From: Candidatus Latescibacterota bacterium
GTDB taxonomy: Bacteria; Latescibacterota; UBA2968; UBA8231
Assembly (NCBI GenBank): GCA_965242865.1
Contig: CBDETK010000013.1
Location: 2,752,001 to 2,816,000, forward strand
Direction of reading: 5' to 3'
Length of the DNA: 64,000 bases
Part shown: positions 9,215-63,517 of the stretch, piece after piece
Position numbering within the stretch: the first letter of the stretch is position 1
How the letters are laid out: every line of letters starts with the position of its first letter
Position numbers and translations under genes: made by a program
Notes under the pieces: model-generated
Seen by the model: the letters and a program-made list of their open reading frames with translations, nothing else
What the model was told of the DNA's origin: nothing
The model's database searches: none

Positions 9215-9266
9215 TGCTTCGCTCCTTCGGCGCGGCCGCGCCTCCAACCTGTGAACGTGAGAAAAC

Positions 9267-10982: not shown

Positions 10983-10986
10983 CGCA

Positions 10987-12024
10987 TCACGGAGCCGGCA
11001 GGTGGTAGCCGTCCTTGCCGACCTTTATCTTGGCCAAGATGCCCGGATTGTCGGGCGGGTCGCCCCCTCCGTAAGTGACGTAAAGCGTCTTGCTCTCCGC
11101 GCCGCGGCCAAACGCCACATTGGTCGGGACTTCGGGCGTGGGGATATAGGCCCGTTCGTCGCCCTGCGGCGAATACACGACAATGCCCGGGCGCGTCACA
11201 TCCCGCACCGCCACGTACAGATTGCCATCGATGTCGGCTACTAAGCCGTCCGGCCCGTCTTCGGGATAGTAATCGACCAGCACTTCGCGGAAGGTGGCCG
11301 TGCCATCGGCATGCAGGTCGTACGCCAACAGAGCCATGCGGCCCTTGTGCGCGGGAGTGCCTTCCAAGCGGAAGATCCCGGTATTGCCGTTGTCGTTGCT
11401 CACCACGTAGAGCGACTGTTGGTCCGGGGACACGCAAACGCCGTTGGGCTTGCCGGCGTCCGTGATGATCCGCTCGATGGTGCCGTCTGGGTCAATCCGG
11501 TACACCGCCATCACCGGCTGGTCGAGCGGCTCGTGCCCGAGGTAGCGCGGGTCGCTGAAGTAGATGCGGCCCTTTTCGTCGATGGAAATGTCGTTGGGAG
11601 CGTTAAAGGGCCGGCCCTCGTACAGCCCAGCGATGATCTCGGCCTTTCCGGTGGCCAAGTCAGTGCGCGTCACGCGCTGCCCCCCAAAGTCGGCACCCTC
11701 AGCGGCGATGAGCCGCCCCAGCGCGTCGAACTTGAGTCCGTTGGACATGCCGCTGGGCGAGCGGTAGATGGCGGTCTGGCCGGTCTGGGGATCGTAGCGC
11801 CAGATGTGCCCGGCCTGCATCCCCGAATCCTGAGAAAAGGTAATGTCGCTGAAGTAAACCGAGCCGTCTAGGGCCACGGCCGGCCCCTCGGAAAAGAAGG
11901 CGCCGTCGAAGAGCACTTCGAGTTCGGCCCCTGCGGGTATAATCGACGGATCGCCCGTCGGCTCTTGGGCGAAGGCCGTGCTGGCCACTAGAGCCAGCAC
12001 CATTGTGACGAGACGTTGCAGCAT
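10987..12024 (-). CDS. SMP-30/gluconolactonase family protein, secreted
   Basis: Signal peptide; EGP, NAPND, PNG, PDG and TNVAFG motifs. Confidence 0.92.
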   Translation of the reverse strand: MLQRLVTMVLALVASTAFAQEPTGDPSIIPAGAELEVLFDGAFFSEGPAVALDGSVYFSDITFSQDSGMQAGHIWRYDPQTGQTAIYRSPSGMSNGLKFDALGRLIAAEGADFGGQRVTRTDLATGKAEIIAGLYEGRPFNAPNDISIDEKGRIYFSDPRYLGHEPLDQPVMAVYRIDPDGTIERIITDAGKPNGVCVSPDQQSLYVVSNDNGNTGIFRLEGTPAHKGRMALLAYDLHADGTATFREVLVDYYPEDGPDGLVADIDGNLYVAVRDVTRPGIVVYSPQGDERAYIPTPEVPTNVAFGRGAESKTLYVTYGGGDPPDNPGILAKIKVGKDGYHLPAP

Positions 12025-12045
12025 GGTAGCTCTCCTTGGAAGTGG

Positions 12046-13578
12046 TTATTGGCCGCCAACCACGGCGTCGTACAGCCGCCGGACGCCTTGGAGATGCCCC
12101 GCCAAGACCGCCTCCAGCGGCTCGTCTAGTTCCATCAATTCGGCTAGAGTCTGGCGGGTGTCGGCCTCTTCGGGCACCGCATACACCGGCTGGGCCTCCT
12201 GAATTTGCAGCAAGTTTTCTAGCTGCCGCAAAAAGCGGTAGGCATCCGTTAGGGTGTGGGCGTCCTCTGCCGCGAGCAGGCCGGCCCGGCGCAAGCGCTC
12301 AAGCGCCATCAGGGTATTGTGGGCGCGGATTTGGGGATGGATATGGCCGTTGAGTAGCTGCAGGCACTGGACGATGAACTCGATGTCGCGGATGCCCCCG
12401 GGTTGTAGCTTGATGTTGTTTTCGCCGGCCCTAATCGCTATTTCGTCTTCGATGCGTTGCTTGACGCGGGCAATCTCTTGGCGCGGGTCCTCTGCGAAAT
12501 GGCTCGGAAAGACAAAAGGGGCCAGCATTTGGCGAAACTGTCGCCATATTTGGGTGGAGCCCGCGGCGCGCCGGGCCTTAATCAACATCTGGCGCTCCCA
12601 CAGCTCGCCCCGCTCCTCGTAGTAACTCAAGTAGCTGGCCAAGGGTTGCACTAAGGCCCCGTCGATGCCGTCGGGCCGCAGCCGCATGTCAACGCGATAA
12701 AAAAATCCCTCCTCGGTCATCGCGGTCAATAGCTGGATGAGCCGCTCGCCCAAGCGCCGGAAAAACTGGCCGTTATCAACGGAATAGCCATCGTGCGGCG
12801 CGCGCGTTTCGCCTTCTTCGTCGTAGATGAACAATAAATCGATATCCGAGCTGTAGTTGAGTTCTTGGCCGCCGTATTTGCCCAAGCCCACCACGCAAAA
12901 CTTGGCCGGCCGGCCGTGCTTGCCCAGCGGCCGCCCCCAGCGCTCCAGCAGCTCTTCCCAAGCCCATGTTAGGGCCTGATCTACGATCCCGTCGGCCAAG
13001 TCGGCCAGCTCGCGGCCGACCTGCCGCACATCTTTCACGCCCAGCACTTGGGCCGCGCCCAACCGCAGCAGTTCGCGCTGCTGGAATCGGTACAAGTCCG
13101 TTAGGGGATCGTCGCTGTCCGTCTCTTGGATTAGGGTGCGGCGCAGGGCGGACAGGGCCAGCGGCTGGCTCAGGTAGGGCGTCTCGTCGAGCAGCCAATA
13201 GAGGTGTGCCGGGGAGCGCATCAGTACGTCGGTCAAAAAGCCGCTGTACCCCAAGACTTGAGCCAACTGCTGCCCCAAGGCGGGGACGTCGTTGGTCCGG
13301 TGATGTAAGGCCGTTATCCCGCCCGTTCGCTCCAAGAATCGCTCCAGCCGCCGCAGGGCTTGGTCGGGCTGGACGGACCGGCTCACCGCCGCCAGCAGCG
13401 ACACCGGCGGATCTAAGGCATGGACTGGGCCGGCCAGATCGACCAACAGGTCCAGCCGCCGCAGGGCTTGATAGGGCTGATCAAAGCCCAGTTGGGCTAG
13501 GGTATGGCACGCTGGCCCGCTCGTTTCTTCAAAGACCCGGTGGGCTAGGCGTAGCGTATCTTGGAGCGCAGACATCAA
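12046..13578 (-). CDS. glnE: Half-length GlnE-like nucleotidyltransferase (one catalytic domain)
   Basis: GKYGGQELNYSSDIDL, RVDMRLRPDG, WERQMLIKAR and NIKL..GGIRDIEF motifs; only 510 aa. Confidence 0.8.
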   Translation of the reverse strand: MMSALQDTLRLAHRVFEETSGPACHTLAQLGFDQPYQALRRLDLLVDLAGPVHALDPPVSLLAAVSRSVQPDQALRRLERFLERTGGITALHHRTNDVPALGQQLAQVLGYSGFLTDVLMRSPAHLYWLLDETPYLSQPLALSALRRTLIQETDSDDPLTDLYRFQQRELLRLGAAQVLGVKDVRQVGRELADLADGIVDQALTWAWEELLERWGRPLGKHGRPAKFCVVGLGKYGGQELNYSSDIDLLFIYDEEGETRAPHDGYSVDNGQFFRRLGERLIQLLTAMTEEGFFYRVDMRLRPDGIDGALVQPLASYLSYYEERGELWERQMLIKARRAAGSTQIWRQFRQMLAPFVFPSHFAEDPRQEIARVKQRIEDEIAIRAGENNIKLQPGGIRDIEFIVQCLQLLNGHIHPQIRAHNTLMALERLRRAGLLAAEDAHTLTDAYRFLRQLENLLQIQEAQPVYAVPEEADTRQTLAELMELDEPLEAVLAGHLQGVRRLYDAVVGGQ

Positions 13579-50357: not shown

Positions 50358-51605
50358 ATGGACGCTGACCGATCCCTGTTTCCCCGCTCGCTGGCCCCCG
50401 TCCTCCGCGAGGCTTTGGCCGATACGCCGGTGGTCTGTCTGCTCGGACCGCGGCAAAGTGGGAAAACTACGCTCGTTCAGCAACTCGCGCCGGACCGTGC
50501 ATTCGTCAGCTTGGACGAGCACAATTACTACCAGACCGCCGGTGCCGACCCAGACGGGTTCGTCGCCAGTCTGCCGGAGGCGGTGACCGTGGACGAAGTG
50601 CAACGGGTGCCGGTGCTGCTCTCGGCTATCAAGTGCGCTGTGGATCGGGACCGCCGGCCCGGGCGTTTCCTGCTGACCGGCTCGGCCAATCTACTGCTGG
50701 TGCCGACCGTTACCGAATCGTTGGCGGGACGGATGGAAATGGCGCAGTTGTACCCATTGACCGAATCAGAAAAAGCGCGTCAGCCCGGGTGCTTCCTCCG
50801 CGACTTGTTGAGCGGTGCGCTCAAACCGGGTATCCGGCCCGAAGCGGAGCCTGCTGGTCTATCGCTGGCCGAGCGATTGGTAGCTGGCGGCTATCCCGAG
50901 CCGTTGACCCGGACGTCCAGCCGCGCCCGGCAATGGCACCGGCAGTATCTCCGCAGCATCGTCGAGCGGGATGTGCAAGATGTGGCGCGGGTGAGGGATG
51001 CGCACGAATTGGCTCGCTTGCTCGAACTGCTGGCCCAGCGCAACGCCGCACTATTGAACACCTGCAATCTGGCCAACAGCCTCGGCCTGCACCGGGCGAC
51101 CGTAGAACACTACATCGCTGTACTCGAGCGGCTCTTTCTGGTGCGACGCTTGCCCGCGTGGCACCGCAATCCGGCCAAGCGACTCGTCAAAACACCGAAG
51201 ATCCATCTACTCGATAGCGGGCTGGCGGCGACCCTCGCCGATCTGACTGCGGCCGATTGGCTCGACCATCGGGACCGCATGGGGCATCTACTGGAGTCTT
51301 TTGTGGTGCAGCAACTCATGGCCCAAGCCACGTGGACAGAGCCGGATTTGCGTTTCTGGCACTATCGCGACAAGGATCGGGTGGAGGTCGATGTAGTGCT
51401 TACTCGGGGTCGGAAGACTTGGGGTATTGAGGTCAAAGCCGCCGGGGCACTCGCCGCCAAAGATGGGCGAGGGCTTGTGCGGCTGGCCGATCGCTGTGGC
51501 CGAGATTTCGAGTCCGGGGTGCTGCTCTACGCCGGCCGTGACCGACTCCCGTTGGCCGACGAGCGCATACTCGCCGTGCCGCTGAGCGAGTTGTGGGAGC
51601 GGTAG
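50358..51605 (+). CDS. AAA_14 ATPase with DUF4143 and C-terminal PD-(D/E)xK-like domain
   Basis: GPRQSGKT, DEVQ, LTGS, GGYP, DSG and EVD...IEVK motifs. Confidence 0.92.
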   Translation: MDADRSLFPRSLAPVLREALADTPVVCLLGPRQSGKTTLVQQLAPDRAFVSLDEHNYYQTAGADPDGFVASLPEAVTVDEVQRVPVLLSAIKCAVDRDRRPGRFLLTGSANLLLVPTVTESLAGRMEMAQLYPLTESEKARQPGCFLRDLLSGALKPGIRPEAEPAGLSLAERLVAGGYPEPLTRTSSRARQWHRQYLRSIVERDVQDVARVRDAHELARLLELLAQRNAALLNTCNLANSLGLHRATVEHYIAVLERLFLVRRLPAWHRNPAKRLVKTPKIHLLDSGLAATLADLTAADWLDHRDRMGHLLESFVVQQLMAQATWTEPDLRFWHYRDKDRVEVDVVLTRGRKTWGIEVKAAGALAAKDGRGLVRLADRCGRDFESGVLLYAGRDRLPLADERILAVPLSELWER

Positions 51606-51750
51606 GGCACGAACCGGCGGGTCTTTGTACATTCTATGAGGCAGGCGATCGGCGCGTGGCCGCCCGCTGCCTAGACTGCACGGCACTGCGGAGATTGAGA
51701 ACCGACAAAAGAGATGGGAACGCTCAGGTGCTAGAGAGAGGTATCACTCC

Positions 51751-53133
51751 ATGGACGAGATAACACTCAAGAACTTCCGCTGCTTCCGCGAAGAGCAGAC
51801 CGCCCGCCTCGCGCCGCTGACGCTACTCGTTGGCGAAAATAGTACGGGCAAGACTTCTTTCATGGCGATGATTCGGGCACTGTGGGATGTCGCCTATGGG
51901 CGTCAGGCACCGGATTTTAAGAAAGCTCCTTACGATCTGGGTAGTTTCGACGAAATTGCCCACTACCGAGGGGGCAGGGGAGGCAGGGCCGAGACCTTTG
52001 AGGCTGGGTTTAAGGTCGCCCCAAGATCTGTGCGCCGGAAAAGACGACACACCACCCCTAACAACCAACCCTATCTTTTTGAGATGACTTTCAAGAAAAA
52101 GGGGACCGTACCTATCCCTGTGAATATGCGGCTTTCTAACCAAGATGCTTGGGTCGAGAGCCTGTTTGAAGATCAGTCTTGGCAGATCAGTTTCGGAACA
52201 TCCAGAGGGGTTTGGAAGTCTCCCGATGGCTTCCGAGACCGATTAGATGCCGATCTCGACCTGAACCACCCGATATGGCTCTTTTACTACTATCTAATAG
52301 ATCGGAAGATGGTTGGAAATCAAGAAAGTGAAACAGCCCCAATCACATTTCAAGATTCTGAGTTGCTTACTGATAAAGATTGGGAACTAATCAACCAACT
52401 TATTAGGGTTCACAGACAGAGGAATTTTGAATATCATAGACGGCAGCCATACGCTAGTGCTCCGGTCCGCTCCAAGCCGCGCAGAACCTATGATCCCGCT
52501 CGTTGGTCACCGGATTCTGAGGGCGAATACGTTCCCATGTATCTCGCCGACTTGTACTTCCAAGACCAGCGCAGTTGGACAGAAATGAAAAAGGCTCTAG
52601 AGAGCTTTGGGCAAGCTGCTGGTCTCTTTGATAAAATCTCCATTAAACCGCTGGGGAGAAGGTCCAGTGAACCTTTTCAAGTGCAGGTCAGGAAATTCGA
52701 TGGCGGATTAAAAGGTCCACAGCGCAACCTGATCGACGTCGGCTATGGCGTCAGCCAGATGTTGCCCGTAATAACCGATCTGTTGCGTCATAATGCACCA
52801 CCTATGTTTCTGTTACAGCAGCCAGAAGTGCATCTTCACCCTAGTGCTCAGGCGGCTCTCGGCAGCTTGTTTTGCGAAGTTGCCAATCCGGGTCGGCAAT
52901 TGATAATCGAGACCCACAGCGACCACTTGCTCGACCGGGTGCGGATGGACGTGCGCGACGGCACAACGCCGTTGAAACCCGACGATGTGTCCATTCTGTT
53001 CTTTGAGCGCGGCGGTCTGGATGTGCATATTCACTTGCTCCAAATCGACGAAGAGGGAAACATCTTGGACGCACCCGATGGCTACCGACAGTTCTTCATG
53101 GAAGAAACGGCGAGGTCTTTATGGAAGAGATAG
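51751..53133 (+). CDS. ABC-type AAA_15 ATPase with DUF3696-like C-terminus
   Basis: GENSTGKT, DVGYGVSQ, QQPEVHLHP and ETHS motifs. Confidence 0.88.
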   Translation: MDEITLKNFRCFREEQTARLAPLTLLVGENSTGKTSFMAMIRALWDVAYGRQAPDFKKAPYDLGSFDEIAHYRGGRGGRAETFEAGFKVAPRSVRRKRRHTTPNNQPYLFEMTFKKKGTVPIPVNMRLSNQDAWVESLFEDQSWQISFGTSRGVWKSPDGFRDRLDADLDLNHPIWLFYYYLIDRKMVGNQESETAPITFQDSELLTDKDWELINQLIRVHRQRNFEYHRRQPYASAPVRSKPRRTYDPARWSPDSEGEYVPMYLADLYFQDQRSWTEMKKALESFGQAAGLFDKISIKPLGRRSSEPFQVQVRKFDGGLKGPQRNLIDVGYGVSQMLPVITDLLRHNAPPMFLLQQPEVHLHPSAQAALGSLFCEVANPGRQLIIETHSDHLLDRVRMDVRDGTTPLKPDDVSILFFERGGLDVHIHLLQIDEEGNILDAPDGYRQFFMEETARSLWKR

Positions 53134-53151
53134 TCTATAGGAACCTGAAGA

Positions 53152-53619
53152 ATGTGTGCCATTGTTGACGCCAACGTCGCATCTGAGGTATTTGGTTCTA
53201 AGCCACCGCCAGCAGGAGAGAAGTTCTTTGAATGGCTCAACAAAGGAAATGGCCGGTTGGTGGTCGGCGGCAAGCTGCTTGAGGAACTTGAAAAGAGTTT
53301 GGCGGATTTCAGACGCTGGGGACAGCAGGCTCAGATTGCTGGAAGAATGAGAGTCGTAAATAAAAGAGAAGTTGACGCAAGGACGGAGCAGATCCAGCGT
53401 GAGGATGCAATCAGTTCCGATGATCCACATGTCATTGCCTTGGCTCAAGTCAGCGGAGCCCGGCTGTTGTACTCGAATGATGGCGACTTACAGAAGGATT
53501 TCAGAAACGGAGAACTGATTGACGATCCCCGCGGTAAAGTTTATTCGACACGTAGGAATAAGAGCTTCCAGCACAGTCACGACAAGCTGCTAAAAAACAA
53601 AAAGTTATGCCGTCGATGA
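53152..53619 (+). CDS. PIN-like domain protein
   Basis: IVDANV, SDDPHVIALA and LYSNDGDL acidic residues. Confidence 0.75.
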   Translation: MCAIVDANVASEVFGSKPPPAGEKFFEWLNKGNGRLVVGGKLLEELEKSLADFRRWGQQAQIAGRMRVVNKREVDARTEQIQREDAISSDDPHVIALAQVSGARLLYSNDGDLQKDFRNGELIDDPRGKVYSTRRNKSFQHSHDKLLKNKKLCRR

Positions 53620-53668
53620 TTTGGGGCTAAAGCCCTACGCTGCTATAGCCATCCTACATCATTCAAGA

Positions 53669-53695
53669 CTGGATTCCCGCTTTCGCGGGAATGAC
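53669..53695. repeat. REP-like palindrome CTGGATTCCCGCTTTCGCGGGAATGAC
   Basis: ATTCCCGC-TTTC-GCGGGAAT stem-loop. Confidence 0.75.
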
Positions 53696-53773
53696 GCCTC
53701 GTAAGCAAAAAACAGTGCCGATGAACGTTCCATGCTTTCAAGTCACTTAGGACTGTTATAGGACACGAAAATT

Positions 53774-55777
53774 ATGCAAAAACTCATTGCTAACGACCCA
53801 GAGACGCGCTCGGCGGACATGGTGGCTGATAACATCAAACACCTGAAGACCCTGTTTCCCGAAGCCGTTGCCGAGGACAAGATCGACTTCGAGGTGCTCA
53901 GGCAGCTGCTGGGCGGCGAGATCGCCGATCGCGAGGAGAAGTACGGCCTCAACTGGCACGGCAAGTGCCGGGCGCGGCAGCTTGCTCTGACGCCTTCGAC
54001 CGGCACTCTGCGCCCCTGCCCGGAGGAAAGCGTCGATTGGGAAACGACGCAAAACCTGATGATCGAGGGCGACAACCTAGAGGTGCTCAAGCTGTTGCAG
54101 AAGAGCTACGCTGGGAAGGTGAAGCTGATTTACATTGACCCGCCGTACAACACGGGGAAGGACTTCGTCTATCCCGACGACTACCGGGATAGCATGCGGA
54201 ATTATCAGAAGTTGACGGGACAGACCGGCGACGATAACCGAAAGTTGTCGTCGAATACGGAGGCATCGGGACGGTTCCACACGGACTGGCTGAACATGAT
54301 GTATCCACGGCTGAAGTTGGCGCGGAATCTACTGACATCCGATGGAGCTATTTTCGCATCAATAGACGAAATGGAGCATACGCGCCTTCGAGTAGCAATG
54401 GACGAAATTTTCGGTCAAGAGAACTTTGTTGCCGACATGGTGTGGGCAGCAGGCCGCAAGAATGATTCAAAGCTTATCTCCGTATCTCACGAATATATCG
54501 TTTGTTACGTGCGCGATCATGGACACCTGCGCGAGCAAAAAATTTTGTGGAGACAGCGAAAAAAAGGACTCGAAGATATATACGCGCAATACAAAAAAAT
54601 CAATAGACAATACGGCGATGACTTTGCGGCAATGACCAAGGCATTGAAGCGGTGGTATAGGGACCTGCCTGATAGTCATCCGGCAAAGGCACACAAACAC
54701 TATTCTCAGGTTGACAGGCGAGGTATTTACTTTCGTGACAATATCTCATGGCCAGGTGGTGGAGGCCCGAAATACGAAGTTCTGCACCCCGTTACAAAAA
54801 AACCTGTAATGGTTCCATCGCGAGGTTGGATGACGAGTGACCCTATAAAAATGAAAAACTGGATCGATGAAGACCTCGTCCACTTTGGACGAGACGAAAC
54901 AGGTGTGCCCTGTATCAAATCGTACCTTGTGGACAGAGAATATCAAGTGCCGTATAGTGTTTTCTACCAAGATGGAAGATCCGCTTTTAAGCGACTGCGT
55001 TCCTTGATGGGAGCACCCTGTTTTGATCACCCTAAAGATGAAAATATGCTTCAAGAAATCGTCGGCATGATGACTTCCAAAGACGACATTTGCTTAGACT
55101 GCTTTGCCGGTTCAGGTACGTTCTACCATTCCGTCACGGCTCAGAACGCCTTGGATGGAGGGAAGCGACGTTGTTTATTGGTCCAACTCCCGGAACGCCT
55201 CGATCCAAGTATTAAGGAGCAGAAAATTGCCGCAGAATACTGTGATTCCATTGGTAAGCCCCGCACCATAGCGGAGTTGACGAAAGAGCGTCTTCGCCGT
55301 ACGGGAAGCAAGATCAAGGAAGCGAATCCGCAATTCACGGGCGACCTCGGCTTCCGCGTCTTCAAACTGGGCACGTCCAACATCCACGCTTGGGAGCCGG
55401 ATGGCGACGACCTAAAACAGACGCTACTCGACAGCATCGACCACATCAAATCGGATCGAACCCAAGACGACATCCTCTACGAGTTGCTACTCAAGCTCGG
55501 CCTCGACTTGTGCGTCCCCGTCGAGACCCGGACCATCGCGGGCAAGGCCGTGCGTTCCATCGGGGCCGGCACGTTGATCTCCTGCCTCGACGAGCACATC
55601 GCCCGCAAGGAAGTCGATTCGCTGGCCCTCGGCATGGCTGATTGGCACAAGCAACTCGAACCTACGGGCGACGCCACGGTGATTTTCCGCGACAGTGCCT
55701 TTGAGGACGATGTGGCTAAGACGAACTTGGCGGCCATTCTGGAGCAGCACGGTCTCGGCAACGTGCGGAGTCTATAA
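53774..55777 (+). CDS. mod: Type III R-M methyltransferase Mod, copy 1
   Basis: EGDNLEVLK, IYIDPPY, WLNMMYPRL, HPK and FAGSGT (beta-class order). Confidence 0.93.
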   Translation: MQKLIANDPETRSADMVADNIKHLKTLFPEAVAEDKIDFEVLRQLLGGEIADREEKYGLNWHGKCRARQLALTPSTGTLRPCPEESVDWETTQNLMIEGDNLEVLKLLQKSYAGKVKLIYIDPPYNTGKDFVYPDDYRDSMRNYQKLTGQTGDDNRKLSSNTEASGRFHTDWLNMMYPRLKLARNLLTSDGAIFASIDEMEHTRLRVAMDEIFGQENFVADMVWAAGRKNDSKLISVSHEYIVCYVRDHGHLREQKILWRQRKKGLEDIYAQYKKINRQYGDDFAAMTKALKRWYRDLPDSHPAKAHKHYSQVDRRGIYFRDNISWPGGGGPKYEVLHPVTKKPVMVPSRGWMTSDPIKMKNWIDEDLVHFGRDETGVPCIKSYLVDREYQVPYSVFYQDGRSAFKRLRSLMGAPCFDHPKDENMLQEIVGMMTSKDDICLDCFAGSGTFYHSVTAQNALDGGKRRCLLVQLPERLDPSIKEQKIAAEYCDSIGKPRTIAELTKERLRRTGSKIKEANPQFTGDLGFRVFKLGTSNIHAWEPDGDDLKQTLLDSIDHIKSDRTQDDILYELLLKLGLDLCVPVETRTIAGKAVRSIGAGTLISCLDEHIARKEVDSLALGMADWHKQLEPTGDATVIFRDSAFEDDVAKTNLAAILEQHGLGNVRSL

Positions 55778-55856
55778 ACACCGCTAAAGTTGATGGTTCG
55801 CCATCCCATTCCCTTCTGATGAGGGGCGAATGACGAAAAGGTAAGGAGATAGGACG

Positions 55857-56096
55857 ATGCCTAATGACAGAGCATGGAACGAGACGCTGATTGAAAGAAA
55901 CGTGACGTACCATATTGAGTTCGATGGGCGGCTCTTCCTCATTGAAAACGTCCCGGCACGAGTCAATGTCGAGACGGGTGAAAGGCATTTCTCACCGGAG
56001 ACCGTTGAGCACTTGCAGCAAGCGGTGTGGGACCAATGCCGCCCCGTTCGCACCATTGAGACGCCGGTTTATGATTATGCAAAAACTCATTGCTAA
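55857..56096 (+). CDS. YgiT-type zinc-finger-like protein lacking the Cys ligands
   Basis: IENVPARV..ETGE..FSPETV motif; TAAGGAG RBS; 3' end overlaps the mod2 start. Confidence 0.8.
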   Translation: MPNDRAWNETLIERNVTYHIEFDGRLFLIENVPARVNVETGERHFSPETVEHLQQAVWDQCRPVRTIETPVYDYAKTHC

Positions 56097-58026
56097 CGAC
56101 CCAGAGACGCGCTCGGCGGACATGGTGGCTGATAACATCGAGCACCTAAAGGCCCTGTTTCCCGAAGCCGTTGCCGAGGACAAGATCGACTTCGAGGTGC
56201 TCAAGCAACTGCTGGGCGACGAGGTAGAAGATCGCGAGGAGAAGTACGGCCTCAACTGGCACGGCAAGCACCGGGCGCGGCAGCTTGCCCTGACGCCTTC
56301 GACCGGCACCCTGCGCCCCTGCCCAGAGGAAAGCGTCGATTGGGACACGACGCAAAACCTGATGATCGAGGGCGACAACCTAGAGGTGCTCAAGCTGTTG
56401 CAGAAGAGCTACGCCGGAAAGGTGAAGCTGATTTACATTGACCCGCCGTACAACACGGGGAAGGACTTCGTCTATCCCGACGATTATCGGGACAGTATGC
56501 GGAATTATCAGAAGTTGACAGGGCAGACGGATGGACAGAACGGCAAGGTGTCGTCGAACACGGAGACATCGGGACGGTTCCACACGGACTGGCTAAACAT
56601 GATGTATCCACGCTTGAAGGTAGCAAGGAATTTGCTAACAAGTGACGGTATAATACTCATATCCATAGGGGACGAGGAGTTGCACAATCTGCGAGTCGTC
56701 TGTGACGAAATTTTTGGCTACGAAAATTTTTGTGGCACCTTTATATGGGAAAAAAAGAAGAAACCTTCTTTTTTGGATCGGAACATGGGTACAGTCACGG
56801 ATTACATTGTCGCCTATGCAAAAGACCGTTCACAATCTCCGGCCTTTACAACTGGGTCGGTCGAAAAAGAAAAGAAATATCCCTTTAACAATGCGGGCAA
56901 CAACATGGCCGTGTTGGAATTTCCAGCGGCAAGCGTGACCTTCGGGATTAACGATCAGATCGTTACAGCCCAAGACATGTCTGAGGGGAACATCAAGACC
57001 GTGTTGCTCGACGATGTTCACATTGTAAAAGGGAGAAACAGCAATGCTTTTCGGCTACTTGGTGAATGGCGGTACTCGCAAGCCAAACTCAACGAATTCG
57101 TAGCTGCCAACGCAGATATTCTTATCAGCAGGGTTCCGTTTCGTCCCAACTACGTGAATCAGTCGGGCGACGAGAAAAAGATAGCGAACCTTCTTTCCTA
57201 CAGAATCAACGCTGTTCAGACCAACGAAGATGCCACTCAGCAAACACGAGAAATTTTTGGCGCGGATGTTGTCTCCTATCCCAAGCCGGAAGGCTTGCTC
57301 AAGTACTTGATAAGGGCCGTTTCGCGGGAGGACGATATTATTTTGGATTTTTTTGCCGGCTCAGGGACGACAGCTTCGGGCGTCTGGAGGCAAAATGCTG
57401 AAGATTCGTGCTCGCGGCGCTTCATCTTAGTGCAGTTGCCCCAACCGCTCGATACGAAAGACCAGGCTCAGGTGGTTGGGGCCGATTTCTGCGACCAAAT
57501 TGGACGATCCCGCAACTTAGCGGAGTTGACGAAAGAGCGACTACGCAGATCCGCGAAACAAATCGCAAAAGAGACACCGCTTTTCGCAGGCGACTTTGGC
57601 TTTTTAGTCCTCAAGCTCGCGACCTCAAACATTCAATCTTGGATCACCAAATCTGAAAATCTCGAGCAATCCATCCTTGACCATGTAGAAAATATAAAGA
57701 AAGGCCGAACCGACTACGACCTCCTTTTTGAACTCATGTTGAAGATGGGTCTCGATCTCTGTGTTTCCATCGAATCGCGAGTGATTGCAGGAAGGACTGT
57801 GTACTCAATCGGTGCTGGAATACTGTTTGCCTGCTTTGAGCATGATCTTGTACAAGAAGAAGCTCAGCAACTCGGATTCGGCATCTCGGCGTGGCAAAAA
57901 GAACAGTCTCCGGCCAGTGAAAGCACCGTTATCTTTCGAGACAGCGGCTTTGTTGACGATAGAGCAAAGCTAAATCTAACCGCCGCCCTAGAGCAGTCCG
58001 GCGTGACAAATATCAGGAGTCTTTAA
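56077..58026 (+). CDS. mod: Type III R-M methyltransferase Mod, copy 2 (different TRD)
   Basis: DPPY, YPKP and DFFAGSGT motifs. Start placed at ATG 56077 by homology to copy 1. Confidence 0.93.
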   Translation: MQKLIANDPETRSADMVADNIEHLKALFPEAVAEDKIDFEVLKQLLGDEVEDREEKYGLNWHGKHRARQLALTPSTGTLRPCPEESVDWDTTQNLMIEGDNLEVLKLLQKSYAGKVKLIYIDPPYNTGKDFVYPDDYRDSMRNYQKLTGQTDGQNGKVSSNTETSGRFHTDWLNMMYPRLKVARNLLTSDGIILISIGDEELHNLRVVCDEIFGYENFCGTFIWEKKKKPSFLDRNMGTVTDYIVAYAKDRSQSPAFTTGSVEKEKKYPFNNAGNNMAVLEFPAASVTFGINDQIVTAQDMSEGNIKTVLLDDVHIVKGRNSNAFRLLGEWRYSQAKLNEFVAANADILISRVPFRPNYVNQSGDEKKIANLLSYRINAVQTNEDATQQTREIFGADVVSYPKPEGLLKYLIRAVSREDDIILDFFAGSGTTASGVWRQNAEDSCSRRFILVQLPQPLDTKDQAQVVGADFCDQIGRSRNLAELTKERLRRSAKQIAKETPLFAGDFGFLVLKLATSNIQSWITKSENLEQSILDHVENIKKGRTDYDLLFELMLKMGLDLCVSIESRVIAGRTVYSIGAGILFACFEHDLVQEEAQQLGFGISAWQKEQSPASESTVIFRDSGFVDDRAKLNLTAALEQSGVTNIRSL

Positions 58027-58029
58027 CCG

Positions 58030-59037
58030 ATGACCAATCACCTCCCTACAGGGTCTTTCTCAACATGGAAGGTAGCTGAGTTTAGGGACTCGCTAAATTC
58101 GACGTTGAAGGAAGATCGAAAAAAAGGAGACGCGCAGCTACGTCTCTATTTTTACGCCGTAACGAAGCGAGGATGGGATGAAATTCGCACGAGCACTTTG
58201 AGCTGGATGAGATTCGATCGGCGTCGTAAAGTATTCGCGTATGTTGGAACGGATCATGCGATCACAGATCCGGAAGGATTGAAAGCCATGGCTGATGACG
58301 GCGTCACTGTTCGCCTTATGAGCAACTATCGGGGCGTATTTCATCCGAAGGTTGTATGGCTCGATCACTCTACACGATGCCGAGTGTGGATTGGTAGTAA
58401 CAATCTCACTCGCGATGGACTGATCAACAACATCGAATTTGCCGCGATGATCCAGTCAGACGACGCTCCTCAAGAACTTAGAAAATGGGCTGATGAGATT
58501 CACGCAGGAAGCATTACACTGACGGAGGATAACCTAAGTTCCTATCGAAATGAGCGTCATAAGTTCGAGAGAGCACACATGCGAGCCGGGATGGCAACAT
58601 TTACTTGGTGTTTGAAGCGCGAGCCGCCCGCTGCAAAGCGATCTGTTGCTAAGGTCGATCTTATCGTCGAGGTTATGCCCAAGGAGACTGGGGCTGGCGG
58701 CAAACATATTCAGATCCCTATCCAAGCGGCAAAAGAATTTTTCAAACTCAGCGGTTCCAGAAAAGTTACTCTGACCGAAAAGAACAACAGGCGGTCGAAA
58801 CGCGAATTAACAATGACGTTATTTCCAAACCGTACTGTCCGGCTCGTCATCAATGAATTGGAATACCGCGATCGCCCATGCGTTGTTCTCTTTCATAGAA
58901 CGGGCTCAGACCGATACCAGTTTGAAATCATTCCCGAATCTATTTTTCCGACTCGATACAGAAGTCTGCTCGCGCTCTGTGACCGCCAGACACATCCCAA
59001 GAGCAGACGCTGGGGCATCGTAAAAAACGCACCATGA
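58030..59037 (+). CDS. PLD-family (BfiI/NgoFVII-like) endonuclease with a C-terminal putative DNA-binding domain
   Basis: FHPK....GSNNLT..G...NIE single-HxK motif; ATGA overlap with res. Confidence 0.8.
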   Translation: MTNHLPTGSFSTWKVAEFRDSLNSTLKEDRKKGDAQLRLYFYAVTKRGWDEIRTSTLSWMRFDRRRKVFAYVGTDHAITDPEGLKAMADDGVTVRLMSNYRGVFHPKVVWLDHSTRCRVWIGSNNLTRDGLINNIEFAAMIQSDDAPQELRKWADEIHAGSITLTEDNLSSYRNERHKFERAHMRAGMATFTWCLKREPPAAKRSVAKVDLIVEVMPKETGAGGKHIQIPIQAAKEFFKLSGSRKVTLTEKNNRRSKRELTMTLFPNRTVRLVINELEYRDRPCVVLFHRTGSDRYQFEIIPESIFPTRYRSLLALCDRQTHPKSRRWGIVKNAP

Positions 59038-61991
59038 AACTCCACTTTGAACCCAACCTCGACTACCAACTCCAAGCCATTGAAGCAGTCTGCGACCTGT
59101 TTCGCGGCCAAGAGGTCTGCCGCTCCGAATTCACAGTCGTACGCAATGCGGCGGATGCTCAGGCTGGCCTCGGCTTTGCAGAAAGCGATCTGGGCACCGG
59201 CAATCGCCTAAACCTGCCCGATGAGGAGATATTCGCCAATCTCAACGATGTCCAACTCCGCAACGGCTTGCTTCCTTCGGCCTCCTTGGATTCGGGCGAT
59301 TTCACCGTGGAGATGGAGACCGGCACCGGCAAGACCTATGTGTACCTACGCACCATCTTCGAGCTAAACAAACGCTACGGCTTCACCAAGTTCGTCATCG
59401 TCGTGCCGTCGGTCGCCATCAAGGAGGGCGTGTACAAGTCGCTCCAGATCACCGCCGACCACTTCCGGGCACTCTACTCGGGCACGCCCTTTGAATACTT
59501 CCTCTACGACTCGGCCAAACTCGGTCAAGTGCGAAACTTTGCCACCAGTCCGCAGATTCAGATCATGGTGGTAACGGTTGGTGCTATTAACAAAAGGGAC
59601 GTCAACAACCTCTATAAGGACAGCGAGAAGACGGGCGGCGAAAAGCCGATTGACCTAATCCGGGCCACGCGCCCCATCCTGATCGTCGATGAGCCGCAGA
59701 GCGTAGATGGTGGTTTGCAGGGGCGCGGTAGAGAAGCCCTCGGCGCCATGAATCCCCTCTGCACGCTGCGCTACTCGGCGACACACGCCGACGAGCACCA
59801 GATGGTCTATCGGCTCGACGCGGTAGATGCCTACGAGCGCAAGCTGGTCAAGCAAATCGAGGTAGCATCGGCGACCGTCGAAGACGCCCACAACAAGCCC
59901 TACGTCCGCCTAGTGTCAACGCGCAACTTGCGCGGCACGATCCGCGCCAGGGTCGAACTCGATGTCGAAACGGCGACTGGGATCCGGCGGCGGGAAGTCG
60001 CGGTCCAAGATGGAGACGATCTCGAACAAACCACCAAACGTGCGATCTACCACAATTGCCGCATCGGCGAAATTCGCGTCAAAAAGGGCGACGAATTCGT
60101 CGAGTTGCGCGTACCCGGCGGCGAACACTTTCTCCGGCTGGGAGAAGCCTACGGCGACGTGGATGCGCTCGCTGTCCAGCGCGAGATGATTCGCCGCACC
60201 ATTCGCGAGCACTTCGACAAAGAGAAGCACCTGCGCCCGCAAGGGGTCAAGGTGCTCAGTCTGTTTTTCATCGATGCGGTAGATCGCTACCGGCAGTACG
60301 ACCACGCGGGTCAGCCGGTCAAGGGCGACTACGCCCAGATTTTTGAGGAAGAGTATCGGCGTCTCTCCACGCATCCAGACTACCAGCACCTCTTTGACAA
60401 CGCGCGCGTCGAGGATGTCCACAACGGCTACTTCTCCATCGACAAAAAGGGGGGCTGGACAGATACCGCCGAGAACAACCAGCCCCAGCGCGACAACGCC
60501 GAGCGAGCTTACAACCTGATCATGCGGGACAAAGAGAAGCTCCTGAGCCTAGAGACGCCGCTCAAGTTCATCTTCTCGCACTCAGCCCTGCGCGAAGGCT
60601 GGGACAACCCCAACGTCTTTCAACTATGTACGCTCCGCACCATTCGCACCGAGCGGGAGCGGAGGCAGACCATCGGGCGCGGCCTGCGCCTGTGCGTCAA
60701 TCAAAAAGGCGAGCGGCAACGCGGCTTCGGGGTCAATACGCTCACGGTCATTGCTACGGAGAGCTACGAAGAATTTGCCGAGAACCTCCAGCAGGAAATC
60801 GAGACCGACACCGGCATCCGCTTCGGCGTCGTAGAGGCGCACCAGTTTGCGGCCATTCCGGTCATCGGCACGGATGGACAGACGACGGCTCTCGGTTCCG
60901 CAGCGTCGAAGAATTTGTGGGACCATCTGAAAGCAGAGGGATATATCGACGCGACCGGGCGAATCGAGGACGCGCTCCGAGCGGCCCTCAAGGACGATAC
61001 CTTCAGCGTACCCGAGGAATTCGTCGATCAGCGTCGAGAGATCGCCAAGGTGCTACGCAAATTCGCCGGGCGTCTAACCATCAAAAACGCCGACGAGCGC
61101 CGCTCAATTCGCCCGCGCCGCGCCGTGCTCCACAGCCAAGAGTTCAGGGCGCTGTGGGACCGCATCAAACACAAGACCACGTACCGCGTCGAGTTCGATA
61201 ACCGAGCCCTGCTCGCACAGTGCATCAAAGCACTGGACGATGCCCCGCCGATCCCTCGTCCCCGGCTCCAGTGGCGCAAGGCCGACATCGCCATCGGCCA
61301 ATCAGGAGTCGAGGCGACCGAACGCGCGGGGGCAGCCTTAGTGGGGCTGGACGAAGCCGAGATAGAGCTACCCGATGTGCTCACTGAGCTTCAGGACCGG
61401 ACGCAACTCACGCGCCGCAGCATACAGCGCATCCTCTGTGCGACCGAACGCCTCGCCGATTTCGAGCGAAACCCGCAACCATTCATCGAACTCGCCGCGC
61501 AAGCCATCAACCGCTGCAAGCGTCTCGCCTTGGTCGATGGCGTCAAGTACCAGCGTCTCGGCGACGAGTGCTACTATGCACAGAAGCTCTTTGAAAACGA
61601 GGAACTAACCGGCTATCTGAAGAACGTACTTTCGGACACGACGAAGTCCGTGTACGATCAGGTCGTGTACGACTCCGAAACGGAGAAATCCTTTGCCGAG
61701 CAGTTGGAGAACAACACTGAGGTCAAGGTGTACGCCAAGCTGCCGGGATGGTTCACGGTGCCGACGCCGCTTGGAAGCTATAACCCAGACTGGGCCGTGT
61801 TCGTGGAGAAAGACGGAGGCGAGCGGCTGTATTTTGTAGTCGAAACGAAAGCCAGCCTGTTCGCCAGCGATCTCCGCGATGCCGAAAGAGCCAAGATCGA
61901 GTGTGGCAAGGCGCACTTTGCCGCACTCACCGTGAGCGAGTCGCCGGTGCATTACCAAACGGCCCGCTCCCTAGAAGACGTATCCTGTTGA
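59034..61991 (+). CDS. res: Type III R-M restriction subunit Res
   Basis: METGTGKT, DEPQ, YSATH, LREGWDNPN, QTIGRGLR and PDW...VETK motifs. Confidence 0.95.
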   Translation: MKLHFEPNLDYQLQAIEAVCDLFRGQEVCRSEFTVVRNAADAQAGLGFAESDLGTGNRLNLPDEEIFANLNDVQLRNGLLPSASLDSGDFTVEMETGTGKTYVYLRTIFELNKRYGFTKFVIVVPSVAIKEGVYKSLQITADHFRALYSGTPFEYFLYDSAKLGQVRNFATSPQIQIMVVTVGAINKRDVNNLYKDSEKTGGEKPIDLIRATRPILIVDEPQSVDGGLQGRGREALGAMNPLCTLRYSATHADEHQMVYRLDAVDAYERKLVKQIEVASATVEDAHNKPYVRLVSTRNLRGTIRARVELDVETATGIRRREVAVQDGDDLEQTTKRAIYHNCRIGEIRVKKGDEFVELRVPGGEHFLRLGEAYGDVDALAVQREMIRRTIREHFDKEKHLRPQGVKVLSLFFIDAVDRYRQYDHAGQPVKGDYAQIFEEEYRRLSTHPDYQHLFDNARVEDVHNGYFSIDKKGGWTDTAENNQPQRDNAERAYNLIMRDKEKLLSLETPLKFIFSHSALREGWDNPNVFQLCTLRTIRTERERRQTIGRGLRLCVNQKGERQRGFGVNTLTVIATESYEEFAENLQQEIETDTGIRFGVVEAHQFAAIPVIGTDGQTTALGSAASKNLWDHLKAEGYIDATGRIEDALRAALKDDTFSVPEEFVDQRREIAKVLRKFAGRLTIKNADERRSIRPRRAVLHSQEFRALWDRIKHKTTYRVEFDNRALLAQCIKALDDAPPIPRPRLQWRKADIAIGQSGVEATERAGAALVGLDEAEIELPDVLTELQDRTQLTRRSIQRILCATERLADFERNPQPFIELAAQAINRCKRLALVDGVKYQRLGDECYYAQKLFENEELTGYLKNVLSDTTKSVYDQVVYDSETEKSFAEQLENNTEVKVYAKLPGWFTVPTPLGSYNPDWAVFVEKDGGERLYFVVETKASLFASDLRDAERAKIECGKAHFAALTVSESPVHYQTARSLEDVSC

Positions 61992-62026
61992 TCCTATTCC
62001 CGATTCACCACCCAAAGGAACCCACC

Positions 62027-63517
62027 ATGACCGACCGCCCCAACGTCCTCGTAATAATGACCGACCAGCAGCGCGCCACAGCCAGCCATCTCTACGGCAA
62101 CACCTTTTGTCAAACCCCGTCGATGGAACGCCTAGCGGCCGACGGGGTGCTCTTTGAGAATGCAATTACCCCGCACCCGCTTTGCGCGCCCGCGCGGATC
62201 TCGTTTTGGACTTCGCAATTTCCCCATTCGCACGGAGGTCGGCGCAACCAGACCTTGATGCCGGCCGGGGCCGAGCACGCTTGGCAGCTCTGGAAGGCGG
62301 CTGGCTACGCCACGGGCTTGATCGGCAAAAATCACTGCTTCGATCGGGAGGAAGACTTGGCGCTTTTCGACGTGTGGAATGCCTTTACCCACGGCGGGCG
62401 CGCCGAGGGGCCGCAGACGCGAGGCATGGACTGGTTCCGGCCGGAATCAGGGCGTCGCAAGGTCGCGGCCGAGCATCGCCAACTCGCCCATCAGAATCCC
62501 CGCTTTAGCTATGGCACCTCCGAGTTGCCGCTAGAGGACCACTCAACCGGCCTAATCGCCGGGCAGACGACGCGCTTTCTCGAAAAGCATCGAGACCAGC
62601 CCTTTGCCCTGTGGGTTTCCTTTCCCGACCCGCACGAGCCGTGGCTGTGCCCAGCCGAGTACGCGGCCTTGTTTCCGCCCACAGCCATTGACCTGCCCGC
62701 TTGGCGCGACGGCGAATTTGACGACGAGCGCGCCCCCGAGCGCAACCGCGTACTCTACCAAATGCTGGGCGTGCGCCGCGATCCGCCCGAAGACCTCTAC
62801 GGCGTCATGGCCTCGTACTTTGGCATGGTGCGCTTTATCGACGACGCGCTCGGCCAGATACTCGACAAGCTCGACGAATTGGGTTTGCGGGAGCAGACGA
62901 TTGTGGTCTTTTGCTCGGACCACGGCGACTTCATGGGCGAACACGCCATGCAGTGCAAGGGCGGGGTCTTCTACGACAGCCTGACGTGCGTGCCCTTGAT
63001 CGTCTCTTGGCCCGGGCAGGTGGCCGCCGGGGTGCGCGACCGGAGCATGGCCAATCTAATCGACGTGGTGCCGACGCTGTTGCACTTGCAGGGACTGGAG
63101 CAGCCGCGCTCCATGCACGGGACGCCGTTGCCCACCGCGACGAAGGCCGCGCCCCGGGCCGCGACCTTTTCCGAATACGGCAGCGGCGGGCCGCTCTTTA
63201 CCATGGCCGACTTGCAAAAGCTACCTCAACCTTGGGGACGCAAGACCTTGATCGACACCTTGCAGTGGCGCGAGGCGGCTGGCCGGTGCAAGATGGTCCG
63301 CACCCGCGAATGGAAGTACGTCCACGACCCCATGGGCGACCGCGACGAACTCTACGACCTCGTCGCCGACCGCGGCGAGTTGGTCAATGTGATCGACGAG
63401 GAGTCACACCGCGACGTCCTCGCAGACCTGCGCCAGCGGCTGGCCGACTGGAGCATCAACACCGAAGATGGTCGCCCGGTGCCCTTGCCCGACCGCGCCC
63501 ACTACGAGCTGGCCTGA
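62027..63517 (+). CDS. Cys-type sulfatase
   Basis: TDQQR, LCAPAR (CxPxR), GKNH, DPH and SDHGD motifs. Confidence 0.92.
   Translation: MTDRPNVLVIMTDQQRATASHLYGNTFCQTPSMERLAADGVLFENAITPHPLCAPARISFWTSQFPHSHGGRRNQTLMPAGAEHAWQLWKAAGYATGLIGKNHCFDREEDLALFDVWNAFTHGGRAEGPQTRGMDWFRPESGRRKVAAEHRQLAHQNPRFSYGTSELPLEDHSTGLIAGQTTRFLEKHRDQPFALWVSFPDPHEPWLCPAEYAALFPPTAIDLPAWRDGEFDDERAPERNRVLYQMLGVRRDPPEDLYGVMASYFGMVRFIDDALGQILDKLDELGLREQTIVVFCSDHGDFMGEHAMQCKGGVFYDSLTCVPLIVSWPGQVAAGVRDRSMANLIDVVPTLLHLQGLEQPRSMHGTPLPTATKAAPRAATFSEYGSGGPLFTMADLQKLPQPWGRKTLIDTLQWREAAGRCKMVRTREWKYVHDPMGDRDELYDLVADRGELVNVIDEESHRDVLADLRQRLADWSINTEDGRPVPLPDRAHYELA

Follow-up and report, generated by a model that had tools for sequence, protein, structure and literature searches.

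The window examined here, the whole stretch of 64,000 nucleotides (nt) from a Candidatus Latescibacterota contig, contains a restriction–modification (R-M) operon in which a Type III system carries two further genes. We give an even chance to the following reading, which rests on sequence comparison and on one predicted structure. Mod2 and Res would form an ordinary Type III R-M pair to which two components have been added: a nuclease of the phospholipase D (PLD) family with a B3-like DNA-binding domain (PLD-B3), and a second methyltransferase gene, mod1. A single Res would serve two specificities, and the PLD protein would be safe under the methylation directed by one type of target recognition domain (TRD), called type A below. 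Type III systems are regarded as machines built from two genes, where the TRD of Mod determines the specificity of methylation and of cutting alike, hence the free shuffling of TRDs. What is new in the sequences compared is that the PLD add-on is conserved and that the Mods adjacent to it are limited to two TRD types, which suggests a link to methylase specificity.

In the proposed enzymatic process, Mod1 and Mod2 would each hemimethylate their own asymmetric site, and each would recruit the single Res for ordinary ATP-triggered Type III restriction. The PLD protein would dimerise to build one active site, like single-HKD nucleases, bind DNA through its own B3-like domains and add a second cut requiring neither metal nor ATP. 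Its target in host DNA would be protected by methylation from Mod2-type (TRD A) Mods. Since the recognition by the nuclease would be separate from the recognition by the methylase, the TRD would no longer be swappable. This separation would explain both the two TRD types found in PLD-linked Mods and the free TRD change in PLD-less relatives. Lastly, mod1 would be a second complete mod, joined upstream by a rearrangement which left an orphan YgiT-type antitoxin.

The operon and the PLD-B3 protein

All five open reading frames (ORFs) of the locus are intact and run in one direction, on the forward strand. mod1 (53774-55777) encodes a complete Type III Mod of 667 amino acids (aa), a beta-class N6-adenine methyltransferase with a TRD of type C. 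It is followed by a YgiT-like ORF (55857-56096, 79 aa) and by mod2 (56077-58026, 649 aa), which encodes a Type III Mod with a TRD of type A. The PLD gene (58030-59037, 335 aa) comes next; its product comprises an N-terminal single-HKD domain and a C-terminal B3-like domain. Finally, res (59034-61991, 985 aa) encodes a superfamily 2 (SF2) helicase-like ATPase with a C-terminal PD-(D/E)xK endonuclease. These coordinates bear out the gene order given in a preliminary description of the window, which had let the locus start at 53771. The end at 61991 holds, and the true ATG of mod1 lies 3 nt later, at 53774. The coupling of the PLD gene noted there is also found: a gap of 3 nt follows the mod2 stop codon (TAA, 58024-58026), and the PLD stop codon overlaps the ATG of res within ATGA. 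For mod2, the ORF list runs to a TTG at 55915; the homology to mod1 and relatives begins at the ATG at 56077, which overlaps the 3′ end of the YgiT-like ORF by 20 nt.

The GC content is 0.48-0.55 across about 52-59.5 kb versus 0.60-0.68 in most of the flanking DNA. Contigs of the sequencing runs X1 and X2 span the region from the mod1 3′ end over the YgiT-like ORF to the mod2 5′ end with 0 differences, and a contig of run X5, from a separate study and a strain about 98-99% identical, spans 55653-56138 with 13 differences. As contigs of all three runs bridge the joint, the tandem mods are not an assembly artefact. In a promoter and terminator scan of 51500-62500, the counts were no higher than those of shuffled sequences (8 versus 6.1; 18 versus 12.8), and no terminator was placed between mod1 and mod2. 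Tandem Repeats Finder reports no simple repeats in the mod genes, so there is no sign of phase variation.

Both Mods are matched by Pfam N6_N4_Mtase (mod1, E 1.9e-26) and by the PADLOC model MTase_III PDLC03634 (mod1, E 2.6e-212; mod2, E 1.1e-209). They show the build of a Type III Mod (beta-class N6-adenine methyltransferase, DPPY, FxGxG and a central TRD). DPPY is present in both, and motif I reads CFAGSGTF in mod1 and FFAGSGTT in mod2. The identity between the two proteins is 79% for residues 1-251 and 48% for the 269 residues at the C-terminus, and the first 300 nt of their genes are 94% identical. The central TRDs give no alignment (15% global identity). Intact motifs around unrelated central regions, as first described, are therefore found in both proteins.

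The res product is matched by Pfam ResIII, DEAD and RE_endonuc (E 2.8e-38) and, at full length, by PADLOC REase_III PDLC03647 (1353.8 bits). It combines SF2 helicase motifs with a PD-(D/E)xK endonuclease, as a Type III Res does. The helicase and nuclease motifs, whose retention had been claimed, can be read in it as GTGKT, DEPQ and YNPDW...VVETK, and are found in all 19 Res proteins compared; helicase and PD..ExK motifs are kept in 11 of 11 PLD-linked and in 8 of 8 PLD-less Res. Since every Res checked keeps its nuclease motifs, the PLD protein is an addition to the Res nuclease and not its replacement.

Its predicted model assigns the PLD protein to the HKD nucleases of the BfiI/R.NgoAVII kind and shows a B3-like DNA-binding domain. 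Its sequence matches Pfam PLDc_2 (E 9.8e-8) and, below threshold, the NgoFVII N-terminal PLD domain. The HKD motif consists of H105, K107 and GSNN at 122-125. Among 21 aligned homologues H105 is invariant and K107 nearly so, while G122, S123, N124, N125 and many C-terminal residues are conserved. A phmmer search of the protein against PDB sequences returns 0 matches, and a profile of the family returns marginal ones (SauUSI, E 0.0016; BfiI, E 0.015, N-domain only). The AlphaFold2 model (pLDDT 80.8) has two domains, and its top Foldseek match is full-length BfiI (2c1l_A, E 1.8e-13); R.NgoAVII (4rct_A, E 1.1e-6) and the BfiI recognition domain are also listed. In VIA, residues 207-335 match the DNA-bound BfiI C-domain (3zi5_A, Z 12.3, root-mean-square deviation 2.9, 125 aligned residues). 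Other VIA matches of this segment are the LlaJI.R1 N-domain (6c5d_B, Z 11.5), UbaLAI B3 (5o63_B, Z 8.9) and EcoRII-N (3hqf_A, Z 8.8). For the N-domain, VIA gives the SauUSI PLD domain (Z 17.0) and Nuc (1byr, Z 12.9), and R.NgoAVII (4rct_A) matches the model over 246 aligned residues with Z 10.3. In the predicted model, a Nuc-like domain with one HKD motif at the N-terminus precedes a C-terminal B3-like domain, which is the BfiI-like build. The proposal of a BfiI-like PLD nuclease had called for a comparison of the C-terminal domain with the B3-like domain of BfiI; both domains match. A complex prediction for Mod2 and PLD (alignments A3 and A1) scores 0.00 and carries no weight either way.

The middle of the PLD gene is variable. 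Relative to locus L001, the mod2-PLD-res unit is 85-98% identical at the nucleotide level except in the segment 58367-58814 (forward strand, about residues 113-261), where identity is 62-79%. At the sequence level this looks like allelic exchange or fast evolution confined to the mid-PLD gene. The segment falls largely inside an in-frame deletion of 552 nt (58244-58795) in run X5, whose contig joins 58243 to 58796. This deletion takes out about codons 72-255; the PLD protein loses its catalytic core and one half of the B3-like domain, and mod2 and res remain in place. In locus L012, the match to the PLD gene (9001-9992) is split between frames, with one part for query 3-111 and an overlapping one for query 98-331, in an otherwise intact mod-PLD-res locus; this is an apparent frameshift or sequencing error.

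Conservation of mod-PLD-res and its recognition domains

The PLD protein is part of a compact family of full-length proteins, with 314 homologues at E<=0.001; the best 120 of these 314 are 47-100% identical to it and about 335 aa long. The family comprises 63 cluster representatives at E<=1e-30 among 1.84 billion. We fetched 37 loci of PLD relatives (13 from genomes and 24 from metagenomes) and mapped the window proteins onto each of them; gene context is thereby covered for a minority of the 314 homologues and of the 63 representatives. The order mod-PLD-res, with members of the window families, is found in 21 of the 37 loci, and two more (L006, L033) show mod-PLD cut by the contig end. The synteny that the preliminary description proposed to search for is thus seen in 23 of the 37 loci, and record titles assign the mod-PLD-res loci to Latescibacterota, Pseudomonadota, Actinomycetota, Saccharimonadota and Myxococcota, five phyla. 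In four loci (L009, L042, L049, L050) the gene after PLD encodes a Type III Mod of shorter length; in L009 and L050 a PDLC03648-family Res follows, and the full order in L009 is ASCH-SNF2, Abi_2, PLD, Mod, Mod, Res. Six loci (L010, L011, L036, L039, L047, L041) have the PLD gene right behind a gamma-class Eco57I/MmeI/DrmMI-like methylase of 1144-1451 aa, or cut, and L010 also holds a DrmD-like SNF2 helicase. One PLD gene follows a ResIII helicase (L048), and three loci are too short to read (L044, L051, L053). In all loci with readable flanks, PLD adjoins an N6-adenine methyltransferase or an SF2 helicase.

Locus L010, from Nitrospinales, deserves a separate remark. A second small PLD-domain ORF (10096-10617, 173 aa) lies just before its SNF2 helicase gene (10806-13496), and the helicase matches the PADLOC model 'HKD+Snf2'. 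The two may represent a split HKD-helicase.

TRDs were typed in 28 Mods. Near-copies were counted once (L031 with L005, L052 with L007, L038 with L035, L046 with L045, and L039 with L036). Type A (159 aa as cut) is carried by mod2 of the window, by L001-L004, L012, L035 and L037, by the PLD-adjacent Mod of L045 and by the PLD-less L069; identity is 64-94% across the PLD-linked members. Type B (139 aa) is found in L005-L008, L013, L030, L034, L040 and L043. Type C (179 aa) is the TRD of mod1 in the window; the Mod encoded upstream in the L045 tandem (70% identity) and the only Mod of the PLD-less L071 (73%) carry it too. In the 18 distinct PLD-linked loci of the window family with a readable TRD, the PLD-adjacent TRD is of type A nine times and of type B nine times, whereas eight PLD-less relatives carry eight different types. 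Pairs of PLD-less loci share a TRD in 0 of 28 cases, even at 88-95% Res identity. Pairs of PLD-linked loci, drawn from the 12 with a full Res, do so in 34 of 66 cases, down to 65% Res identity.

The association extends beyond one Mod backbone. In L009, L049 and L050, the Mod next to PLD has another backbone (PDLC03636; Type III PDLC03636/03648) and yet carries TRD A (47-53% identity over about 156 aa, E 1e-50 to 1e-57); the Mod of L042 has a weak relative of it (29%). We compared a PLD tree of 30 rows, from which L012, near-copies and fragments were excluded, with the label of the adjacent methylase. The label changes 5 times on this tree versus 13.6 times on shuffling, and 0 of 200 shuffles match the 5 changes. 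The B-linked PLDs fall into a single clade (88/82), and L009 and L045 have sister PLDs. On these alignments and trees, the PLD gene travels with the TRD and not with the Res or the Mod backbone.

In a plain Type III system, the TRD can be exchanged safely because one TRD serves both methylation and restriction. With a nuclease that has its own DNA-reading domain, this exchange would no longer be free. Passages of a published account (PMC4081073) likewise relate separate recognition by restriction and modification enzymes to a tendency towards immutable specificity. The locking of TRDs in PLD-linked loci is our main argument for the suggestion that PLD-B3 recognises DNA on its own and relies on TRD-A or TRD-B methylation. 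By a soft divergence score, the columns which best separate A- from B-linked PLDs are 221, 243, 261, 222, 118, 225 and 218. Six of the seven lie in the B3-like domain, although this cluster (218-225, 243, 261) is indistinguishable from shared ancestry since the B-linked PLDs are one clade.

The mod/res slot, the second Mod and rival readings

Close relatives help to place the PLD gene in context. The PLD family occurs in 2 of the 168 genomes searched of the window's phylum, the window genome included. A single-protein search of 40 relatives with PLD gave weak partial matches only, and nine of these 40 have a Res 67-86% identical to that of the window. Flanks were fetched for eight of the nine (G028, which begins inside res, was omitted), and all eight, relatives with Res identities of 68-86%, are without PLD. 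The junction between mod and res has varied content. It holds the toxin–antitoxin pair HicA-HicB in L066 (4586-5049), L067 (4489-4952) and L069 (7427-7893; HicA cut short), an 827-aa TIR-AAA protein followed by HicB in L068 (4859-7342), and no gene in L070, L071, L072 and L061. In PLD-linked loci, the slot may contain a further gene beside PLD: HicB in L002 and an AIG2-like gene in L005/L031. On a Res tree of 20 full-length rows, with partial Res and near-copies excluded, PLD-linked and PLD-less proteins interleave, and well-supported branches force at least three changes of PLD presence.

The surroundings recur as well. The same sulfatase gene (95-96% identity at the protein level) lies downstream of res in the window, L001, L066, L067, L068 and L069. 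Genes for an AAA_15/AAA_21 ATPase and a PIN protein, present upstream of mod1, also stand ahead of mod in L066 and L068 (61% and 69-79% identity). As sulfatase and ATPase-PIN flanks recur, we regard these loci as one chromosomal hot spot with changing content, a variable site for defence genes in the genus. L068 further holds a truncated 5′ copy of mod (residues 1-83) ahead of the full mod. L001 is without mod1, the YgiT-like ORF and the AAA_15-PIN pair.

The YgiT-like ORF had been listed as a component of the operon. It matches TIGR03831 just above cut-off (E 2.7e-4, 21.1 bits versus 20.2), and its zinc-finger cysteines are all missing. Copies 76-92% identical are found in 17 of 30 same-genus genomes, and it is thus a genuine gene present in several copies in the genus. 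In L068, the YgiT-like gene lies downstream of res, behind a DUF4258 ORF (Pfam, E 1.1e-19). In the window, this DUF4258 toxin ORF is gone, and the YgiT homology stops exactly at the mod2 ATG. The ORF does not belong to the operon and is the remnant of a DUF4258-YgiT toxin–antitoxin pair. From the sequence, a resident 'AAA_15-PIN-mod...' segment and a 'mod2-PLD-res' segment would have been joined in the window, and the orphan antitoxin would mark their joint.

Which role the two Mods play can be approached through their relatives. Over its whole length, mod1 is 79% identical to the sole Mod of L071 (a plain mod-res locus with a Res 78% identical to that of the window) and shares its unusual GSGTF motif with this Mod. 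Compared with the Mod encoded upstream in L045, the identity of mod1 is 69%. Mod2 is 92% identical to the Mod of L001, and its TRD type is that of the sole Mod in L069, a PLD-less mod-res locus with a Res 84% identical. The nearest kin of the non-TRD parts of mod1 likewise pair with Res proteins related to the window Res. Because types A and C each serve as the sole Mod of mod-res pairs, two specificities sharing one Res is the simplest reading, and it was one of two options in the preliminary description. The other option, in which Mod1 and Mod2 would mark the two strands of a single asymmetric site, one strand each, and so license the PLD nuclease, fits less well, and we consider it improbable. 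Its appeal is that sites would stay at least hemimethylated after replication and a BfiI-like nuclease would be tolerable; BfiI itself has two strand-specific methylases. One-strand methylation leaves unmethylated daughter sites, a problem which part of PMC4081073 presents as unsolved for MmeI-type enzymes. Furthermore, the C-then-A tandem recurs in the distant L045/L046 (mods 15 nt apart, no YgiT; PLD 48% and Res 72% identical to those of the window), where the type A Mod again abuts PLD, and L009 is a third two-Mod PLD locus, in another backbone. However, the second of the two TRDs in L009 is not of type C, and the toxin–antitoxin remnant at the window joint points to rearrangement rather than to a designed pair. 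Of the 18 distinct PLD-linked loci, 16 have a single Mod, so two Mods are not needed for PLD. It is also conceivable, though very doubtful, that mod1 is a functionless left-over of an earlier mod-res pair whose res was replaced, and that only Mod2, PLD and Res work. The same-genus site does read AAA_15-PIN-mod-...-res-sulfatase in L066 and L068 and mod2-PLD-res-sulfatase in L001, and the window resembles the join described above. A left-over of this kind is at odds with the full-length frame of 667 aa, with its DPPY and FAGSGT motifs and its similarity to the sole, presumably working Mod of L071, and with the type C Mod at the same place in L045. The X5 strain, moreover, keeps the covered mod1 stretch (26 differences over 54285-55682, compared as nucleotides) though its PLD core is lost.

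The PLD gene itself can be viewed in two further ways. It might be an autonomous passenger, a stand-alone defence or back-up nuclease in a recombination-prone mod/res slot with no functional tie to Type III. The exchange of HicA-HicB, TIR-AAA with HicB, and PLD with HicB or AIG2-like genes in this slot would agree with such a role, as would the patchy distribution of PLD on the Res tree, its in-frame deletion in X5 and the occurrence of the same family beside DrmMI/Type IIG-like methylases. Passages of PMC12839542 also describe auxiliary nucleases of BREX-type loci as back-ups. We nevertheless find this unlikely. PLD abuts an N6-adenine methyltransferase or an SF2 helicase wherever flanks can be read, and it is coupled to mod2 at its start and to res at its stop. 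Nor would a passenger hold the neighbouring TRDs to two types, or bring TRD A along into another Mod backbone. A closer tie than that of our preferred reading is conceivable too, and we put it forward tentatively: PLD-B3 may be a sequence-reading, Type IIS-like nuclease licensed by the one-strand methylation of a Type III Mod. PLD and TRD would then form a specificity-locked cassette which moves between Type III backbones and also sits beside DrmMI-like methylases. The second Mod of the window, L045/L046 and L009 would cover the opposite strand or add an unlocked specificity. The Type III/IIS hybrid of the preliminary description gains support in this broad sense, given that only two TRD types adjoin PLD and that TRD A follows it into another backbone; the licence by two Mods is unsupported in the form given there.

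Several points weigh against a Type III operon with PLD-B3 and mod1 as add-ons. Mere dual specificity leaves the recurrence of the C and A Mod pair in L045/L046 unexplained. PLD is optional and the Type III part lives without it, since the gene is patchy on the Res tree, apparently frameshifted in L012 and internally deleted in X5. The locking of TRDs rests on related loci, and because the B-linked PLDs are one clade, the counts overstate independence. In the C-domain, 48 positions are conserved across both A- and B-linked PLDs, and a strict search found no C-domain residue fixed differently between the two groups. The B3-like domain may for this reason bind DNA without sequence preference. 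C-domain identity shows no separation by TRD type beyond that of the N-domain. Lastly, window and L001 differ by what looks like an exchange of the PLD segment 58367-58814, yet their TRD A remains 94% identical, which would be odd if this segment sets the specificity.

Neighbouring genes, implications and known systems

Upstream of mod1, an AAA_15/AAA_21 ATPase is encoded at 51751-53133 (PADLOC NsnB, E 6.7e-48; also AriA/GajA/PtuA-like), and 19 nt after it lies the gene of a 155-aa PIN-domain protein (53152-53619). This pair may be a separate two-gene defence module. Further upstream, 50358-51605 encodes a DUF4143/AAA_14 ATPase (PADLOC PDC-S01, E 6.2e-154). A piece of its C-terminal end (…PLADERI.AVPLSELWER) is found again directly behind res in L068, a hint at earlier rearrangements in the hot spot. 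Between the PIN gene and mod1 (53644-53700) lies a palindromic intergenic element, GGATTCCCGC...GCGGGAATGAC, present as a single copy in the window. In run X2, its summed contig depth reaches about 1.5e5 and loose ends are numerous there; the element is therefore repeated in high copy number in those metagenomes. Elsewhere in the window genome (contig C13, about 512100-516750), a second, more distant Type III pair has no PLD gene (Mod 55% identical in its N-terminal part, Res 44%), and several further Mod-like methylases are found within about 35 kb downstream of the window.

If the proposed reading is true, the three-gene unit mod-PLD-res would bridge Type III systems and the PLD-type enzymes of the Type IIS and NgoAVII-CglI kinds, and TRDs that stop changing would be the genomic signature of such a bridge. 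On the more tentative cassette reading, a freely re-targetable Type III system would have turned into one with a frozen, doubly enforced specificity. The tandem Mods with one Res offer a natural test of whether one Res serves two specificities. No named system was found for the arrangement: PADLOC, NCBIfam and Pfam name only its Type III parts. Judging from the PADLOC result, defence-system finders would call the locus plain Type III and miss the PLD gene. In the literature, with REBASE and paper supplements outside the scope of the search, no description was found of mod-PLD-res or of tandem Type III mods sharing one res. The unit would also be a case of tolerating a site-reading nuclease under one-strand methylation, which passages of PMC4081073 treat as an open question for MmeI-type enzymes.

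Among known systems, classical Type III enzymes (EcoP15I/EcoP1I, Mod2Res) share with the window a beta-class N6-adenine Mod with a central TRD, an SF2 Res with PD-(D/E)xK nuclease, and mod upstream of res. The Type III norm is one mod and one res, with hemimethylation of an asymmetric site and cleavage that needs two inversely oriented unmodified sites and ATP. The window departs from this gene count: it has two mods with unrelated TRDs per res and a PLD-B3 gene coupled between mod and res, and the PLD-linked members are limited to two TRD types.

DISARM offers a parallel in DrmC, an extra PLD/HKD nuclease gene in a methylase and helicase locus, and some PLD relatives do sit by DrmMI-like methylases and, in L010, a DrmD-like helicase. 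However, the window PLD protein matches DrmC models weakly (PADLOC, E 3.1e-7; NCBIfam DISARM_DrmC_I, 24.9 bits versus a cut-off of 133), and DrmA and DrmB are absent among the eight ORFs scanned between 50358 and 61991. The B3-like domain is a further difference; to our knowledge, typical DrmC is without one. MANTIS (Gao_RL), as described in a preprint, is a different four-gene system. For BREX-type systems, auxiliary HKD nucleases have been proposed in passages of PMC12839542.

BfiI, a Type IIS enzyme, has the same two-domain build as the PLD protein, and sections of PMC4081073 describe it as a PLD enzyme that needs no metal and has one active site per dimer. The two differ in sequence (13-14% identity) and in gene context. 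BfiI stands alone with its own Type II methylases, whereas the window gene lies inside an ATP-dependent Type III operon, next to a Type III Mod and a Res, with no Type II methylase in the operon.

In NgoAVII and CglI (M, R with PLD and B3, and N/H as DEAD-Z1 ATPase), a PLD+B3 protein likewise stands beside a methyltransferase and an SF2 ATPase, and the R subunit has its counterpart in the window. The M genes of these systems are cytosine-5 methylases, and the ATPase partner is a DEAD-Z1 protein without nuclease. The window has Type III N6-adenine Mods, two of them, and its ATPase, a complete Type III Res, carries a nuclease (RE_endonuc) of its own and has no match to Pfam Z1. Parts of PMC5737866, PMC4267654 and PMC4267653 describe PLD+B3 subunits of R.CglI and R.NgoAVII which work with an SF2 ATPase, the R2H2 assembly having one active site. 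NgoAVII and CglI are the closest described systems, and BfiI is the closest solved structure.

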